Shown: one piece after another, positions 1 to 52,800 of the stretch
Layout of the letters: the number at the start of each line of letters is the position of its first letter
How positions within the stretch are numbered: the first letter of the stretch is position 1
DNA from: Escherichia coli O157:H7
GTDB lineage: Bacteria > Pseudomonadota > Gammaproteobacteria > Enterobacterales > Enterobacteriaceae
Assembly: GCF_013167455.1 (NCBI RefSeq)
Contig: NZ_CP038328.1
Reading direction: 5' to 3' (one strand)
Length of the DNA stretch: 64,000 nt
Notes under the pieces: generated by a model
Told to the model about the DNA's origin: nothing
Seen by the model: only the letters and a program-made list of their open reading frames with translations
Databases searched by the model: none
Program-made: the position numbers and the translations under genes

Positions 1-794
1 CAGCGCGAAAGATAAGGTGCCAATCCTTCTTGTTCGAAGAGTTCCAGCGCCGCGCGTAATTCACGTATTAGCATGGCCGCCAACGTATTACGATCGAGAT
101 TGATCCCCGCTTCCTGCAGCGTGATCCACCCCTGATTAACGACACTCTCTTCAACACGACGCATTGCCATGTTGATCCCGGCTCCAATGACTATTTGCGC
201 CGCATCGCCGGTTTTGCCAGTCAGCTCCACAAGAATGCCTGCCAGCTTGCGATCCTGCAGATAGAGGTCATTAGGCCATTTGACACGAACTTTATCTGCT
301 CCCAGCTTGCGTAATACTTCCGCCATCACGATACCGATAACCAGACTTAAACCAATCGCCGCCGCCGGGCCTTGTTCCAGACGCCAGAACATCGACAAAT
401 ATAAGTTTGCGCCAAAAGGCGAAAACCATTTCCGACCCCGGCGACCACGGCCAGCCTGCTGGTATTCTGCAACGCAGGCATCGCCCGATTTAAGCTCTCC
501 GATACGATCAAGAAGGTACTGATTCGTGGAGTCAATCACTGGCAGCACAGTTACACTACCGCCATCCAGCTGACCCAATATCTGTTCAGCATTAAGTAAC
601 TGGATAGGCTCAGGCAGGCTGTATCCTTTACCCGGAACGGTAAAGACATCAACGCCCCAGTCACGCAGTGTCTGAATGTGTTTATTAATAGCCGCCCGGC
701 TCATTCCTAACGTTTCACCCAACTGCTCACCTGAGTGAAATTCGCCATTCGCTAACAGCGCGATTAATTTCAGTGGCACGGTGTTATCCTTCAT
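1..794 (-). CDS. birA: biotin-[acetyl-CoA-carboxylase] ligase / bio operon repressor BirA, N-terminal part (3' end beyond window start)
   Basis: Minus-strand frame from ATG at 794-792, overlapping the murB stop, translates [50 protein letters not shown], recognised as the BirA N-terminus; not in the ORF track because it runs off the window. Confidence 0.9.
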
Positions 795-2165: not shown

Positions 2166-5070
<2,905 letters not shown>

Positions 5071-7144: not shown

Positions 7145-7322
7145 TGGCGTATATTACGCTTTCCCGCTACAGAGTCAAGCATTTATTTTTGCTTTCTCTG
7201 TCGGAATTCTCAGGAGAACCCCGCTGACCCGGCGGCGTGTTTGCCGTTGTTCCGTGTCAGTGGTGGCGCATTATAGGGAGTTATTCCGGCCTGACAAGAG
7301 GAAATTTAAAATAATTTTCCGA
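7145..7322 (-). promoter_or_regulatory. rRNA operon tandem promoters P1 and P2 with upstream AT-rich UP element
   Basis: Minus strand: P1 TTGTCA (7297-7292) and TATAAT (7275-7270) preceded by AGAAAATTATTTTAAATTTCCT; P2 TTGACT (7178-7173) and TAATAT around 7156-7151. Confidence 0.8.
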
Positions 7323-7342
7323 CCGCGCAACATTCAACCAAA

Positions 7343-8200
7343 TCAGCCTAAAACTGCCAGTTTTTCGAGCGTTTCGAAGCCGTAACGCTGTAAAACGGGC
7401 AATAATTGTTCAGCTTCTGGCGTCATTGCCATACAAAAGGCAATATTCGCATCGGCAGATTTTGCATCCGGGGCTTCATGTTCTAACAACCAGGCCGTTC
7501 GGCGAGCAATCGCTGCGCCAGAATCCACCAGCCGGGTTCCCTCTGGCAGCACTTGTAACAGTTCTTCTTGTAGTAGAGGGAAATGGGTGCAACCCAATAC
7601 AACGGTATCTGGCGGCTCTTTCATTCTTAACCACGGGCGTAGGATACGTTTTAGTGCATCCAGAGAAACATCTTCGCCATGCAGCTTCGCTTCAGCCAAC
7701 TCAACCATCTCTGCCGAGCCCAGCATTTCTATCTGGCATTCATTAGCGAAACGCGCGATCAGCTCATGAGTATAAGAACGTTTAACTGTTCCGCGGGTTG
7801 CCAGTAATCCGACAATGCCATTTGCCGTCAGACGTGCAGCAGGTTTAATCGCCGGCACGACACCAACAACCGGGAAGTCGAACTTTTCGCGTAATGCAGG
7901 AAGTGAAACGGTACTGGCAGTGTTGCAAGCGACCACAGCCAGCGCAAGGGGATAACGTTCTTGCACCGCGGTGACAATTGCCACCACTCGCTCAACAATA
8001 AACGCTTCGCTTTTTTCGCCATACGGGAAAGCGACGTTATCGAAAGCATAAATGTAATGGAGATCCGGTAAGAGATGCCGGATCTCGTCATAGACCGACA
8101 ACCCACCGACGCCGGAGTCAAACACCAGCACGGTGGGACGTGGTTCAGAAGGTGTAGCTGCCAGACAAGGTGTATTCCCGTCCTGCAGTTTGGTAGCCAT
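7343..8200 (-). CDS. murI: glutamate racemase
   Basis: ORF track 7343..8212; start placed at ATG 8200 ([20 protein letters not shown]), recognised MurI N-terminus, 285 aa. Confidence 0.93.
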
Positions 8201-9989
8201 AGACTGTCTCATAATCTTTGTCGAACAGGTTGGCTATTTTACCACGAACTGTCAGGTGAGAGGTGACCGGATACGCAACCGCAAGATCCCACAAGCTCAC
8301 ACCGCCCATTTTAACGGTTTGATAAGGATAAGATGAGTAATCCTTATCATAGCGAGTGCCTAAATACTGATAAGTAATACCCCAGTCGAAGTCATACAAC
8401 TGCCAGTCGAGCTGGTATTTCACCTGCTGTTTAGCACGGCGTAACAACGGCGTGTCGGTAATTGCATTGCGCGCATCGACATAATCATAACTCACAGTAT
8501 GCGTCAGTGGTCCGGTATCAAAATTGGCGGTCGCCTCGACGCCCTTAATCCGCGCTTTCCCTTCGTTGTAATATTTCAGGGTGTGATCATCATAATCGAT
8601 CAAGTCACTGACATCGTTACGATATCCGGAAATACGCCAGTTCACCCCAGCGGTTAAGCCTTCAAACGCGCCTTCCCACTGTTTGCTTTTCTCCGGGTCC
8701 AGATTCGGATTTCCGTAGAAGCCATACAGTTGCCCCAGATTTGGTGCCTTATAAGATGTCCCGTAGGAAGCAATGAAGCGATAACCTTCGATGAATTCCC
8801 AACCGGCGCTGGTTTGCCAGGTTCCATGACGACCAAACTGTGAGTTATCGTCGCTGCGTGCTGCGCCTTCAAAGGTAAAATCGCCGACTTGTTGCAGCCC
8901 GGTCAGATAGATGCCGGTATTACGTTGATCATATCCATCCTTAACATAAGCTGTGCCCGGTGCCGTGCTCTGCTTCTGCCAGTCAACACCCGCACCAACA
9001 TTACCGTGGCCAATGATGATGTTGTTTGCCCACTGGACGGTGTATTGCTTCATCTCATCGAGCGTCGCCGACGAATCATAACGACCATAATGGGGATCGT
9101 AGTTGTAATCTTTGCTATGGCTATAGCTGGTAATGAGTTGTGATTTAATCAGTTCGCCGTTATATCGCAGCCCGGCGTCCCAACTTTGACTATAGAGTTT
9201 ACGGGTATCGACCAATGGTGAACCCGGAGAATAATACGCGTCATAATTGGTACGGTTATCATAGCCATAGCCGCGCACAAAGCCGCTCCAGGCATCAGTA
9301 AAGTTATGCTCCAGCGCGCCATAAAGCGTTTTACTTAAAAAACCATCGTTATCTGGCTGCGCTTGCGTTCCGGTATTACCATAGGCAACAACATCATAAC
9401 CATGAGTATGGGCATAATCGCCCAACAACGTTACTCGTGTCTTATCCCCCAGTTGTTGCTGTGTAGAGACATCATAGTTTTGATAACTATTGCTTCCCCA
9501 CCCTGCTGAAATTTCCGTTCCGGGTTCATCGCGCGTCGTGATGATATTCACCACCCCACCTATTGCATCGGAACCATAAACGGCGGAGCGTGGCCCACGG
9601 ATATATTCAACACGCTGGACAAGCGCAATAGGGAACTGGCTAAGGTCGGCAGAACCACTCCCCCCCGCCAGATTCAGGCGTACGCCATCAATTAACACCA
9701 ACACATGACTGGCATTTGTACCGCGAATAAAAATAGATGAGAGCTGACCTGAACCGCCGTTTTGGGTGATATCGACGCCCGGAAGACGGCGCAGCACATC
9801 ATTAACCGAGGTCGACTGCCAGCGGTCGATATCCTGACGCGTCACAACGGTGGTTGGTGCAAGCACAGTGCTGCGCGGCTGTTCAAAACGGTTAGCAGTA
9901 ACGACGAGAGTATCCGGGCTGGTATCCTGTGCCCAAGCGGAAAAGGCTGTGACAGAACACGCCGTCAGCAGCGAAGCTTTTTTAATCAT
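8145..9989 (-). CDS. btuB: TonB-dependent vitamin B12 outer membrane transporter
   Basis: ORF track 8145..10034; start placed at ATG 9989 ([10 protein letters not shown], signal peptide), ends ...TLSGSYTF; 3' end overlaps murI start. Confidence 0.95.
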
Positions 9990-10229
9990 TGTAAAGCATC
10001 CACAATAGAAGAAGGATGCCGCAGGTTTCATCAATATTACGCGATGATGAGAACCAGATGCGACGTTGGCCGGCAGGTCTTCGGGCTTGGAGGGGTATCT
10101 AAGATACTAAGAGATGATGACTTCCCACCGAATGGCAGTGTCCGCATAACGCAATCATCGCACCTTTCCTTACCGCTGCGCGTCAGCTCCAGATTCGCAC
10201 TGGATTCCCTATTAACTCACAGGACCGGC
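9990..10229 (-). ncRNA. btuB leader containing cobalamin (adenosylcobalamin) riboswitch
   Basis: About 240-nt 5' leader, minus strand GCCGGTCCTGTGAGTTAATAGGGAATCCAGTGCGAATCTGGAGCTGACGCGCAGCGGTAAGGAAAGGTGCGATGATTGCG..., recognised as the btuB leader. Confidence 0.85.
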
Positions 10230-10357
10230 AAGTGGATGCTACAGGTTGTAACAAGTTACTGTCCAGACGTAGCTCACAAATAGGAATTCATCAAGATCTG
10301 GACATCTGATGAGCAATCCCTACAATCGCCGCGTACTTTAATTTTTCAGGATACATC

Positions 10358-47992: not shown

Positions 47993-48601
47993 ATGAAAAT
48001 CAGGCTACTGATCCTCAGCCTGCTGGTTTCTGTGCCTGCCTTTGCCTGGCAGCCGCAAACTGGCGACATCATCTTTCAAATCTCTCGCTCATCGCAAAGT
48101 AAAGCGATCCAACTGGCGACCCATTCCGATTACAGCCACACCGGTATGCTGGTGATGCGTAACAAAAAGCCCTACGTTTTTGAAGCGGTCGGCCCGGTGA
48201 AATACACCCCGCTCAAGCAGTGGATTGCCCATGGTGAAAAGGGCAAATACGTTGTTCGCCGCGTTGAAGGCGGACTGAGTGTTGAACAACAGCAAAAACT
48301 GGCGCAAACGGCGAAACGTTATCTCGGCAAACCGTACGATTTCAGCTTCTCATGGAGCGACGATCGCCAGTACTGTTCGGAAGTGGTGTGGAAGGTTTAT
48401 CAGAATGCGCTGGGAATGCGTGTGGGCGAACAGCAGAAGTTGAAAGAGTTTGATCTCAGCAACCCGCTGGTCCAGGCGAAGCTCAAAGAACGCTACGGCA
48501 AAAATATTCCGCTTGAGGAAACGGTGGTCTCACCACAAGCCGTTTTCGATGCGCCACAACTCACCACGGTTGCCAAAGAATGGCCGCTGTTTTCGTGGTA
48601 A
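47993..48601 (+). CDS. yiiX: DUF830-family protein YiiX (permuted papain-like fold, signal peptide)
   Basis: 202-aa ORF MKIRLLILSLLVSVPAFAWQPQTGDIIFQISRSSQSKAIQLATHSDYSHTGMLV. Confidence 0.9.
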   Translation: MKIRLLILSLLVSVPAFAWQPQTGDIIFQISRSSQSKAIQLATHSDYSHTGMLVMRNKKPYVFEAVGPVKYTPLKQWIAHGEKGKYVVRRVEGGLSVEQQQKLAQTAKRYLGKPYDFSFSWSDDRQYCSEVVWKVYQNALGMRVGEQQKLKEFDLSNPLVQAKLKERYGKNIPLEETVVSPQAVFDAPQLTTVAKEWPLFSW

Positions 48602-49831: not shown

Positions 49832-52800
49832 TTAATTACTCCCTTGCCTGATAATTGTAACTCCATTCCCTTTAGCTTTGGGATTATATTTTAGATAGGT
49901 GTTATTTGGTGTTCCCAAGTAACTACTGCATTCTTTTTTTCCCATTCCATTCATATAAGAATTCGTTAAATCTTTGCTTGAAAAATTTAGACTATCATAA
50001 ACATCATTTTCTTTTGTTACTTTATTTCCTTTATCGTCAGAGTAAAAACCGTGAGTGTGATAATCGCCTACTCTCTCTGAACCTTCAGGGCATTTTATAT
50101 TTCGCAAGTCTACACTATCATTATCATTTGAACTTATCGGATTCATGGGGAAATATTCACCTTGCTTCTTACATATTAGTCCACCATATTCTTTATTCTC
50201 GTTAATTGATTCTCCATTACACATTGCCAATGCAAATATTCCAATATCATCTATATTTTTTGATTTAAATTCATATAATCCTAATGGATCCATGCCATTC
50301 ACCGGGCTCAGCGGATATGTATACAGGTTCCATCCCCCCTTCAGCCCAATCGGATCCTGAGTGATATACCTCCCCTGCAGCGGGTCATAATAGCGGTGGC
50401 GGTTGTAATACAGGCCGGACTCCTCATCATACTGCTGCCCCGGCAGGCGGATAAGCTGCTGCAGCTGATGCGGGTTCTCTTCATTCAGCAGGTTGCCCCA
50501 CTCATCGTATTCTGCGCACCATTCTGTTGCCCCTTCCTTACTGATAAGGGCCAGCGGCAGGCCGCGATGGTCGCAGTGGTACAGGTGGATTTTTCGCGCC
50601 GGCGTGTATACCGGGTCCATCTGGCTTTGCATCTGCGCCACAGTCAGGCCGCACGATGCCAGCCAGCGGCGGCTTTCCTCACTCACCCGGTCAGCCAGGA
50701 TTTCACTTTCCAGCCGGTCGAGCATCTGCACCAGCACCGGCGGGAACACCACACTGCCACCGTCTTCGCCGCCGGACTGCTGAAGCGCATCCGCCAGGCT
50801 GCGGCGCTGCGTTTTCGCCAGCTCACCGGTGGCGGTTTCAACCCTGATGAGTGGCGTGAAGCTCCCCGGCTGATAAATCGTCTGGATGCGGGTTCTGTCG
50901 TTCTGTATTGTGGTCAGCCGGTCGCCGTCCCAGCCGTACCAGGTCACTTGCGGTTTCCGTGACAGCGACATCCAGCCCGTCAGGTCCCGTTCACGTCGCC
51001 ACACCCGTTTTGCCACCCTGCGGCCCAGCGGGTCGTAAAGATAGCGGCTTTCGACCAGCGGCTCTTCATATTGTGTCCGCGTGTAGTGCACCAGCCGGTG
51101 CTGACTGTCGTAATGGTACCGGTGAGTCCGCTCATCATCCGTGCGGATAACCCCTTCCGGGATGAGGTCGGTTTTCTCTGTCAGCCTGCCGTGACGGTCA
51201 TACCAGTAAAGATAGTGCGCGTCACGGGCGATACGGTTATCCGGCCACATGCTGAGGGTGCTGTCCGGGTGCAGCTCCGGGTCGGGCAGGCGGTTACCTG
51301 CCGGGTCCGTGGCATACGGGATGCGGATATCCAGATTCGCTGCGGTGGTGTGAACGCCGGTCAGCCTGCCGGAGTCGCTGTAGCTGTAACTCCGGGTCTG
51401 GCGCGGGCTGCTGATGCGGATGAGTTCGCCGTTGTCGTTCCAGGTGTAATCGCGGTCATACTGCAGGCTGTTCAGGTGCTGGCTCTGTAACTGCCCGGCA
51501 GGGGTATAAGCGGTGGTGAGTTCATAACGGCCGAATCTGCGCAGCGTTTTCCGGTGCAGGCGGTCGCGGGTGAAATCCACCAGCGGTGTGTCGCCGAGCT
51601 TCATGCCTGCCAGCCAGCCGCTGCCATAGGTCAGCCATTCCACGGCGGGCAGGCTGTCCGGTATACAGCGGTTCGCCAGCCCCTGCGCGTTGTAAGCGTG
51701 TCTGGTCTCATGCTGCCAGAGCAGTGCTTCCGTCTGCGGGTGATGCACCGTCTGACGCTCACCGGTCAGCCGGCCTTTCTCATCATACCCGTAATGCACC
51801 GTCACCCGGTGCCCTTCGCTGATATGGCTGATGTCTGTCAGCCAGCCGCGTTCGTCATACTGCCAGCGCTCTGCGGTTTCACCCTTCACGGTGCGGTGCG
51901 TGAGGCGGTCTGCTTCGTCATAGTGCCAGTGGGTGACCAGCCCCTCATCCTCGCTGCGGATAAGTTTGCCGGTCAGGTCGTGGTGATAACGCTGTGTGCG
52001 GCCGTCAAAGCCGGTTTCCTGTATCAGCCGGTCGAGTACATCGTAACGGAAGGTGGTGTGGCTGCCGTTTTCACTGGTCAGGCGGATGACCCGTCCGGCA
52101 GCATCGTATTCCATACTGCGCGTCAGACCGCCCTGCGTGGTACAGATGGCTTTTCCCCACGCATCGTACTGTGTCCCGTTTCTGCTGCCGTCCGGGGCAA
52201 TGACGGTGGTCAGGTCACCGGCGGCGTTGTATTCATACCGCGTTTCATGGCCCTGCGTGTCTTTCACGGCAATTAACTGTCCACGGCTGTCGTATGCGCG
52301 GTACTGACTCAGCCCTTCCTCGCGGTGCACCGCCGTCATCTGCCCGAAGCGGTCATGGTCATAACGGGTTACATAACCGGAACAGTCGGTGAAGCTCAGC
52401 AACTGACCGTAACGGCTCCACGTCATGGTTTTCCGGCTGCCGGTGGCATCTTCCGTTGCGCAGGGTAAGTCACTGTGTGGATTATCATAACGGTAGCGGG
52501 TGATATCGCCGTCAGGGGCAGTTTCCTGAATCAGACGGCCCCATTCATCATATTCCCGGCGTATTTCCAGCCCGTCAGGCCCGGTGGCTGACGTTAACTG
52601 GCTGTGGTGGTTATAGTAAAACGCCGATGCCCTGCCATCCGGCGTGGTGATGCGCGTGATGAGGCCCGTCACCACATCCGGGCTGTATTCTGTTGTCCTG
52701 CCTGCGGCATCCGTCTGTGCCCTGAGCCTGCCCACCGCGTCAAACTGACTCTGCGTGACGCTGCCGTCCGCGTGTTCCTTTTTCACCACCCGCTTCAGCC

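Follow-up and report, generated by a model that had tools for sequence, protein, structure and literature searches.

A 56-Nucleotide Dual-Coding Overlap of btuB and murI Conserved across Enterobacterales, with a Candidate murI Promoter inside the btuB 3' End

Introduction

In Escherichia coli, the gene for the cobalamin receptor BtuB and the gene for the glutamate racemase MurI very probably form a genuine same-strand, dual-coding overlap of 56 nt, in which murI starts at the ATG at position 8200 of the window, that is, of the 64-kb stretch of DNA analyzed here, and which may be preceded by a candidate promoter for murI inside btuB. This overlap is already known as an annotated and published feature of E. 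coli. It has been described in a published paper as a case of "well-characterized overlapping ORFs ... share 56 bp", and in the same literature, Ribo-seq tools call the btuB and murI ORFs both translated. What is added here is its conservation in every Enterobacterales genus sampled, the demonstration of selection in both reading frames, and a testable hypothesis concerning a promoter.

The overlap has practical consequences for annotation, genetic screening, and engineering. It fixes the start of murI in annotation, it explains the lethality of a clean btuB deletion as well as the spurious recovery of murI when transposon screens are run for BtuB-dependent phages, and it implies that the 3' end of btuB is not freely recodable or deletable. 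A TraDIS preprint has given the overlap as the reason why btuB is missing from the Keio collection and cannot be fully deleted, and has explained murI as a false hit in a screen for BtuB-dependent phage.

Overlap Geometry and the Two Genes

The two genes, their shared segment, and the regulatory element ahead of btuB are located in the window as follows.

7343..8200, minus strand: murI, glutamate racemase, 285 aa, in agreement with the RefSeq annotation
8145..9989, minus strand: btuB, TonB-dependent cobalamin receptor, 614 aa from MIKKASLL
8145..8200, minus strand: 56-nt dual-coding segment, comprising BtuB codons 597 (part) to 614 plus the stop, and MurI codons 1-19
8145..8147, minus strand: btuB stop codon, TGA here (read 8147..8145)
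8198..8200, minus strand: murI start codon ATG, with its A at 8200
10055..10244, minus strand: cobalamin riboswitch in the btuB leader (Rfam RF00174, 87 bits, E = 2e-21)

The original prediction held that the btuB stop at 8145 lies 56 nt inside murI, in a different frame, and this is confirmed from the sequence. The btuB frame ends in GGC AGC TAC ACC TTC TGA and the murI frame opens with ATG GCT ACC AAA CTG CAG, both ORFs being intact and sharing these nucleotides in different frames. The first position of each murI codon is the second position of a btuB codon, the two frames lying one base apart; the A and T of the murI ATG are bases 2-3 of the BtuB Tyr597 codon TAT, its G is base 1 of Gly598, and MurI third positions coincide with BtuB first positions throughout the overlap. 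Because the frames are offset by one, a third-position change that is silent in BtuB alters a MurI residue.

The window represents E. coli chromosome in reverse orientation relative to the K-12 map, and the comparison with annotated K-12 coordinates that had been proposed as a check returns the identical 56-nt geometry in the MG1655 RefSeq record (btuB 4163639..4165483, murI 4165428..4166285). The same overlap is annotated in two PGAP-annotated strains, and a 501-nt query spanning the junction finds a match in 5425 of 5426 complete E. coli genomes. The other overlaps listed for the window, namely pflD/pflC (35 nt) and the convergent pairs sthA/oxyR (18 nt) and yijO/frwD (14 nt), are likewise real both in the window and in K-12.

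The identity of both products is well defined. MurI is identical to the chain of PDB entry 2JFN, the crystallized E. coli enzyme, apart from residue 262 (Glu here, Gly in 2JFN), and that chain is the 285-residue form starting with MATKLQ. The Asp/Glu racemase family PF01177 is recorded both for MurI homologues and for the murI genes called in related loci, and residues D28, S29, G30, G32, G33, C92, and C204 are invariant in the alignment, which provides the two catalytic cysteines and the DSGxGG motif of a racemase. The BtuB orthologues carry the Plug (PF07715) and TonB_dep_Rec_b-barrel (PF00593) domains of TonB-dependent receptors, and the cobalamin riboswitch upstream of btuB is also annotated in RefSeq strains. 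TonB-dependent receptors have a C-terminal beta-strand ending in Phe, and the BtuB C-terminus here reads ...SGSYTF, with an aromatic last residue.

The chance that an alternative frame is free of stops over 19 codons is ~0.4, and an open frame with an ATG is not improbable. Since such a frame could plausibly arise by chance, the reality of the overlap rests on its conservation.

Conservation across Enterobacterales

The loci compared were drawn from 80 species of Enterobacteriaceae, together with Proteus, Providencia, Xenorhabdus, Photorhabdus, and Serratia, representing three families in all. In 80/80 Enterobacteriaceae species loci, the murI ATG occupies the same place and is followed by a stop of the btuB frame at +53..55, and the ATG is invariant in 81/81 sequences as well as in the five distant genera. 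The position of the btuB stop is constant, with its identity alternating between TGA (70/81) and TAA (11/81). Gene callers likewise report this overlap, at 3001..3056, in Proteus, Xenorhabdus, Providencia, Serratia, and Photorhabdus, so that the 56-nt geometry is found in the 80 Enterobacteriaceae species and the 5 Morganellaceae/Yersiniaceae genera alike, which upholds for all 85 other Enterobacterales species sampled the claim that the overlap is a conserved feature of the btuB-murI pair. In Proteus, where MurI is 66-67% identical, the contig order is trmA(-), btuB, murI, and the 56-nt overlap is kept. Citrobacter amalonaticus (locus L064) was considered as an exception to the 56-nt rule and rejected, its btuB being interrupted by a one-base frameshift in a G-run of a long-read assembly while the junction itself is intact.

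Selection in Both Reading Frames

Synonymous codon entropy was calculated from a codon-aware alignment of 79 BtuB genes. Gene-wide, it averages ~1.2 bits (1.21), with 18-codon windows lying mostly between 0.9 and 1.5, whereas in the overlapping BtuB codons 597-614 it falls to 0.12 bits (Mann-Whitney p = 5e-11). The MurI frame behaves in the same way, with a synonymous entropy of 0.09 in codons 1-19 versus 1.30 in codons 24-285, and synonymous variation is consequently ~tenfold lower in both frames within the overlap. The constraint ends sharply at the btuB stop, the first base past it having an entropy of 1.44 bits. Purifying selection thus acts in both frames and is confined to the shared segment, the upstream edge of which is blurred by a further constrained block. 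Because the sites that are silent in BtuB, which are the second positions of MurI codons, are suppressed, purifying selection acts in Enterobacteriaceae on the MurI tail or, at the very least, on the nucleotides that encode it.

The Constrained Block and a Candidate Promoter Upstream of murI

The further constrained block lies immediately ahead of the overlap, and the elements that may account for it are the following.

8201..8250, minus strand: block of frozen synonymous sites in btuB codons ~581-596, interpreted as a putative promoter, a ~29-nt leader, and a weak Shine-Dalgarno sequence
8236..8244, minus strand: extended -10-like motif TGGTAAAAT (TGnTAnAAT) in btuB codons 582-585, 36-44 nt upstream of the murI ATG
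8210..8208, minus strand: putative weak GAG Shine-Dalgarno sequence

Over btuB codons 577-596, synonymous entropy drops to 0.38 bits from a gene-wide 1.21 (Mann-Whitney p = 4e-9), and the share of conserved degenerate columns without any variation is 44%, compared with 2% in the gene as a whole. The murI frame is closed by a TAG at 8239..8237, and the frozen upstream block is therefore not MurI-coding; nor is amino-acid conservation its cause, because other highly conserved stretches of BtuB have an entropy of ~1.3. Within the block, TGnTAnAAT occurs at an identical offset in every Enterobacterales locus fetched, with position 3 of the hexamer being A or G (TGnTA[A/G]AAT), and has only 3 matches in the window. 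By sequence, TGGTAAAAT conforms to an extended -10 element (TGnTATAAT-like). The motif survives the BtuB replacements G583A (GGT>GCT) and K584R in distant genera, the latter using AAA>AGA and not a CGN codon, by which TA-AAT is preserved.

On these sequence features, it appears slightly more likely than not that murI has its own internal extended -10 promoter at TGGTAAAAT. The gene would then be transcribed at least partly from this site inside btuB, with a leader of ~29 nt. Since murI is essential and lies behind btuB, which is controlled by the cobalamin riboswitch, it plausibly needs transcription that escapes the riboswitch, and a promoter of its own would keep the essential supply of D-glutamate going when the riboswitch shuts btuB down. 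According to the TraDIS preprint, transposon insertions in btuB and a deletion of the first ~1000 bp of btuB are viable, and insertions inside the overlap, which show an ~10-fold orientation bias, are also viable, a tolerance that led the authors to propose that murI may start elsewhere. A promoter immediately ahead of the ATG would fit both the tolerated disruptions of btuB and the orientation bias in the overlap.

A second reading, which must be regarded as a serious but lesser possibility, accepts the overlap as real and dispenses with a separate promoter, so that murI would be expressed only by read-through from the btuB promoter and the frozen 50 nt would reflect the needs of initiation, such as a standby site or an unstructured region, or translational coupling. 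Translation-initiation regions are commonly constrained. Furthermore, a generic scan for -35/-10 pairs did not flag TGGTAAAAT and found no -35 match in the region. One paper treats btuB-murI as a single operon driven from the btuB promoter, and no transcription start site of murI appears in the searched parts of the Cappable-seq, Kim 2012, and Shigella M90T supplements, whose tables are probably incomplete and hence uninformative on this point.

Several observations weigh against read-through as the sole source of murI expression. The constraint extends to -50, past the normal footprint of a ribosome, and its invariant core is exactly TGnTAnAAT, which is kept through amino-acid replacements by means of a rare AGA codon. 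RNA structure at the junction is not unusual, with folding no better than that of shuffled sequences (z = -0.24), and an Rfam scan detected no RNA element at the btuB/murI junction. An essential gene relying only on a B12-repressed leader would itself be B12-repressed, and the insertions and the 1-kb deletion in btuB are viable, though read-through from the inserted cassette could account for that. The internal promoter at TGGTAAAAT consequently remains the preferred explanation of the block. A 9/12 match in the scan at 8373..8346, ~150 nt upstream, was discarded, such matches being no more frequent than in shuffled sequences.

In a broader formulation, the chances of which are about even, the last ~35 codons of btuB may constitute a compact, order-wide murI expression module consisting of the extended -10 element (codons 582-585), a ~29-nt leader with a weak Shine-Dalgarno sequence (codons 586-596), and 19 overprinted tail codons. 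If true, such a module would explain how an essential gene can reside behind btuB, a gene that is B12-repressed, targeted by phages and colicins, often inactivated, and recombining; it would also account for the point, ~115-120 nt before the murI ATG, at which divergent btuB alleles rejoin the common sequence, and for the retention of the MurI tail. The frozen 50 nt with their -10-like motif thereby offer a testable hypothesis, in which an essential cell-wall gene would be insulated from repression by the B12 riboswitch.

A separate invariant site is found at BtuB Tyr573 (8271..8273, minus strand), the codon of which is TAT within CATATCC in 79/79 sequences, ~72 nt upstream of the murI ATG. 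It falls outside the block that is accounted for by the -10 motif, the leader, and the overlap.

The Start Codon of murI

Four in-frame start candidates precede the catalytic FDSGVGG motif of MurI, namely ATG 8212 (-12), ATG 8200 (0), GTG 8131 (+69), and GTG 8125 (+75). The codon of BtuB Tyr597, which supplies the first two bases of ATG 8200, is TAT in 79/79 sequences, whereas TAT and TAC are mixed in every one of the 20 conserved Tyr columns upstream of codon 570 (entropy 0.73-1.0 bit). ATG 8200 is also the only one of the four candidates with anti-Shine-Dalgarno pairing, through a weak GAG (-2.7 kcal/mol) that is not better than the random-position background. Translation of murI would thus begin at ATG 8200 with the help of this weak GAG Shine-Dalgarno sequence. 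The invariance of this ATG and the lack of a conserved alternative start sustain the claim that the overlap constrains the 5' annotation of murI, and the comparative data speak against initiation downstream of 8145, the finding that would have refuted the original prediction, with the downstream GTG codons absent in several species.

It is nevertheless necessary to weigh the proposal, very unlikely in our judgment, that murI starts downstream of the btuB stop at GTG Val24 (8131) or Val26 (8125) and that the 56-nt overlap is an annotation artefact. Long overlaps frequently prove to be annotation errors, MurI aligns with other glutamate racemases only from residue ~21-26 onward, and its residues 1-15 are predicted to be disordered; in addition, transposon insertions in the overlap are tolerated, which is the observation behind the alternative start suggested by the TraDIS authors. 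Against this, GTG +69 and +75 are missing in several species and thus cannot be a conserved start; loci L040, L073, and L082 lack any further in-frame start up to +99, a position that is already within the catalytic motif, and neither GTG shows anti-Shine-Dalgarno pairing. A downstream start would also be at odds with the invariant wobble base of the Tyr597 codon, when other Tyr codons vary freely, and would leave unexplained the ~tenfold suppression of BtuB-synonymous variation exactly up to the btuB stop. The strong orientation bias of transposon tolerance, in turn, suggests expression supplied by the transposon.

The remaining candidate lies upstream and would lengthen both the protein and the overlap.

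8210..8212, minus strand: alternative in-frame ATG (MRQSMATK..., 289 aa, 68-nt overlap), arising from the TAT variant of the BtuB Tyr593 codon

As the start of murI, this codon is as improbable as the downstream GTGs. It is the first ATG of the open murI frame in this strain, and the version number of the RefSeq MurI protein, 2, would allow for a longer model at an earlier stage. Table S3 of the INRI-seq study lists, next to this ATG, a marginal peak of in-vitro initiation assigned to a site 15 nt ahead of the annotated murI start (6.4 CPM, 2/5 replicates), with no counterpart in vivo. However, the Tyr593 codon is TAC in 77/79 Enterobacteriaceae, ATG 8212 being shared by the window with K-12 and one further Escherichia lineage (L005) and absent from most Escherichia lineages sampled, and it lacks anti-Shine-Dalgarno pairing. 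Its product would be at most a minor, strain-specific isoform. No MurI peptide was found in the TRAINSPOTTER supplements, a literature search combining N-terminal extension with glutamate racemase returned no papers, and a recent review contains nothing on the MurI N-terminus. With these candidates considered, ATG 8200 is retained as the start of murI.

The N-Terminal Tail of MurI

The protein segment encoded by the overlap forms most of a tail of ~20 residues ahead of the racemase core, which is present in Enterobacterales sequences only and absent from the nine other homologues in the alignment (45-51% identity). Racemases in the PDB align to MurI only from residue ~21-26. In the AlphaFold model of MurI, the mean pLDDT is 91, residues 1-15 have a pLDDT < 50, and the first strand begins at residue 21; the tail is accordingly predicted to be disordered. 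Four non-enterobacterial murI loci could be read, none of which has btuB upstream, and one of which has trmA directly beside murI in divergent orientation.

The tail has diverged in distant genera, where it reads MAIVRQDENTSSQEVTTSD, as compared with the E. coli tail. Between families, it is ~47% identical versus 66-67% for the rest of MurI, and the linker that follows it outside the overlap varies in both sequence and length. Extra N-terminal residues of E. coli MurI were linked by enzymology of the 1990s to activation of the enzyme by UDP-MurNAc-L-Ala. The first residues are not essential, as judged from the viable transposon insertions in the overlap reported in the TraDIS preprint. The distribution suggests that a lineage-specific, disordered extension of MurI was overprinted, in the +1 frame, on the final 18 codons of btuB together with its stop, the BtuB frame presumably being the older and the MurI tail the younger reading, a direction that we infer from taxonomic distribution.

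Divergent btuB Alleles and Other Origins of the Conserved Island

Variation within btuB is considerable upstream of its 3' end. In ~374 of 5425 E. coli genomes, the 501-nt junction query matches only from position 136 onward. These genomes carry a divergent and longer btuB allele (1884 nt in strain 13C1065T; locus L092), in which similarity to the window resumes ~115-120 nt 5' of the murI ATG (window ~8315-8320) and the 56-nt overlap is unchanged. The sequence of the divergent allele suggests a mosaic or recombinant gene whose breakpoint lies immediately ahead of the frozen 3' block. Two interrupted btuB genes were also encountered, in Intestinirhabdus alba (L038), with an in-frame stop inside btuB, and in C. 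amalonaticus (L064), whose frameshift may be an error of long-read assembly; neither lesion affects the murI start or the final ~110 nt of btuB, which are intact in the two loci. Compared with E. coli, C. amalonaticus BtuB is only ~52% identical over residues 1-580, while its 3' block (residues 560-614) is 85% identical.

It is most improbable that the 110-nt conserved island owes its existence to a small gene in antisense or in the third frame, or to homogenizing recombination, rather than to signals of murI: two antisense ORFs of 63 and 67 aa do span the block in the window and btuB alleles have a mosaic structure that breaks ~115-120 nt upstream of the ATG, but internal stops break the 67-aa ORF in 71/86 sequences and the 63-aa ORF in 48/86, both being broken in most distant genera, the third sense frame contains stops, and homogenization would not stop exactly at the btuB stop with normal divergence on either side. 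The antisense ORFs were therefore rejected as the cause of the conservation, since stops break them in most species.

Other Features of the Window

Several features elsewhere in the window were recorded. A ChIP site of FliA (sigma-28) in btuB maps to 8844..8871 on the minus strand with one mismatch, that is, on the same strand as btuB and murI and ~650 nt upstream of the murI ATG; the study describing this site inside btuB (PMC4183435) gives essentially equal expression values in the two conditions compared. Directly downstream of murI, at 7200..7344 (minus strand), there is a sub-threshold Rfam match to the Yersinia sRNA Ysr197 (19 bits versus a gathering threshold of 167, E = 0.1), which is probably due to chance.

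Between fabR and sthA, the segment 12611..15136 (minus strand) contains ORFs for an MFS/sugar transporter (438 aa) and an M20 peptidase (388 aa); this pair is a strain-specific insertion, because K-12 has only a 277-nt intergenic region there. At 49832..54016 (minus strand), a 1394-aa RHS-repeat protein with an N-terminal DUF6531, an RHS core, and a C-terminal DUF4329 is encoded, which is a probable polymorphic toxin. The RHS gene is flanked by a yiiX-like gene (47993..48601) and by a putative priA, assigned by ORF size and gene order.

Comparison with Known Systems

The closest counterpart is K-12 MG1655 itself, in which btuB (b3966) and murI (b3967) are the same genes in the same order with the same 56-nt overlap and frame relation. 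The 501-nt junction of K-12 and of many other E. coli strains is 100% identical to that of the window, and there is no difference at the junction, whereas the rest of the window differs from K-12 by strain-specific insertions. The overlap is, in this respect, ordinary, and the current understanding of BtuB and MurI is unchanged.

With respect to transcription, the candidate element resembles sigma-70 promoters of the extended -10 type (TGnTATAAT) located inside an upstream coding sequence in sequence motif, in spacing from the start codon, and in being invariant; it differs from them in having A or G at position 3 of the hexamer and in having no -35 element, the likeness being one at the level of sequence.

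With respect to translation, short coupled overlaps of the ATGA or TAATG type (1-4 nt), such as that of fabR/yijD, a pair also contained in the window, with 1 nt in K-12, likewise involve same-strand neighbours that share bases. In termination-reinitiation coupling, the start codon lies within a few nucleotides of the upstream stop; the murI start lies 56 nt before the btuB stop, and coupling of the ATGA type cannot therefore work here in the usual way. The btuB/murI pair is further distinguished from this type by its 19 dual-coding codons and by protein-level constraint in both frames.

The overlap may finally be compared with overprinting, from which it departs in that only an extension, and not a whole new gene, would have been overprinted, with the direction of origin drawn from taxonomic distribution. 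What the two have in common is a younger reading that is restricted to one order and predicted to be disordered, and that occupies the +1 frame of a presumably older and structurally important sequence, here the C-terminal strand of BtuB.
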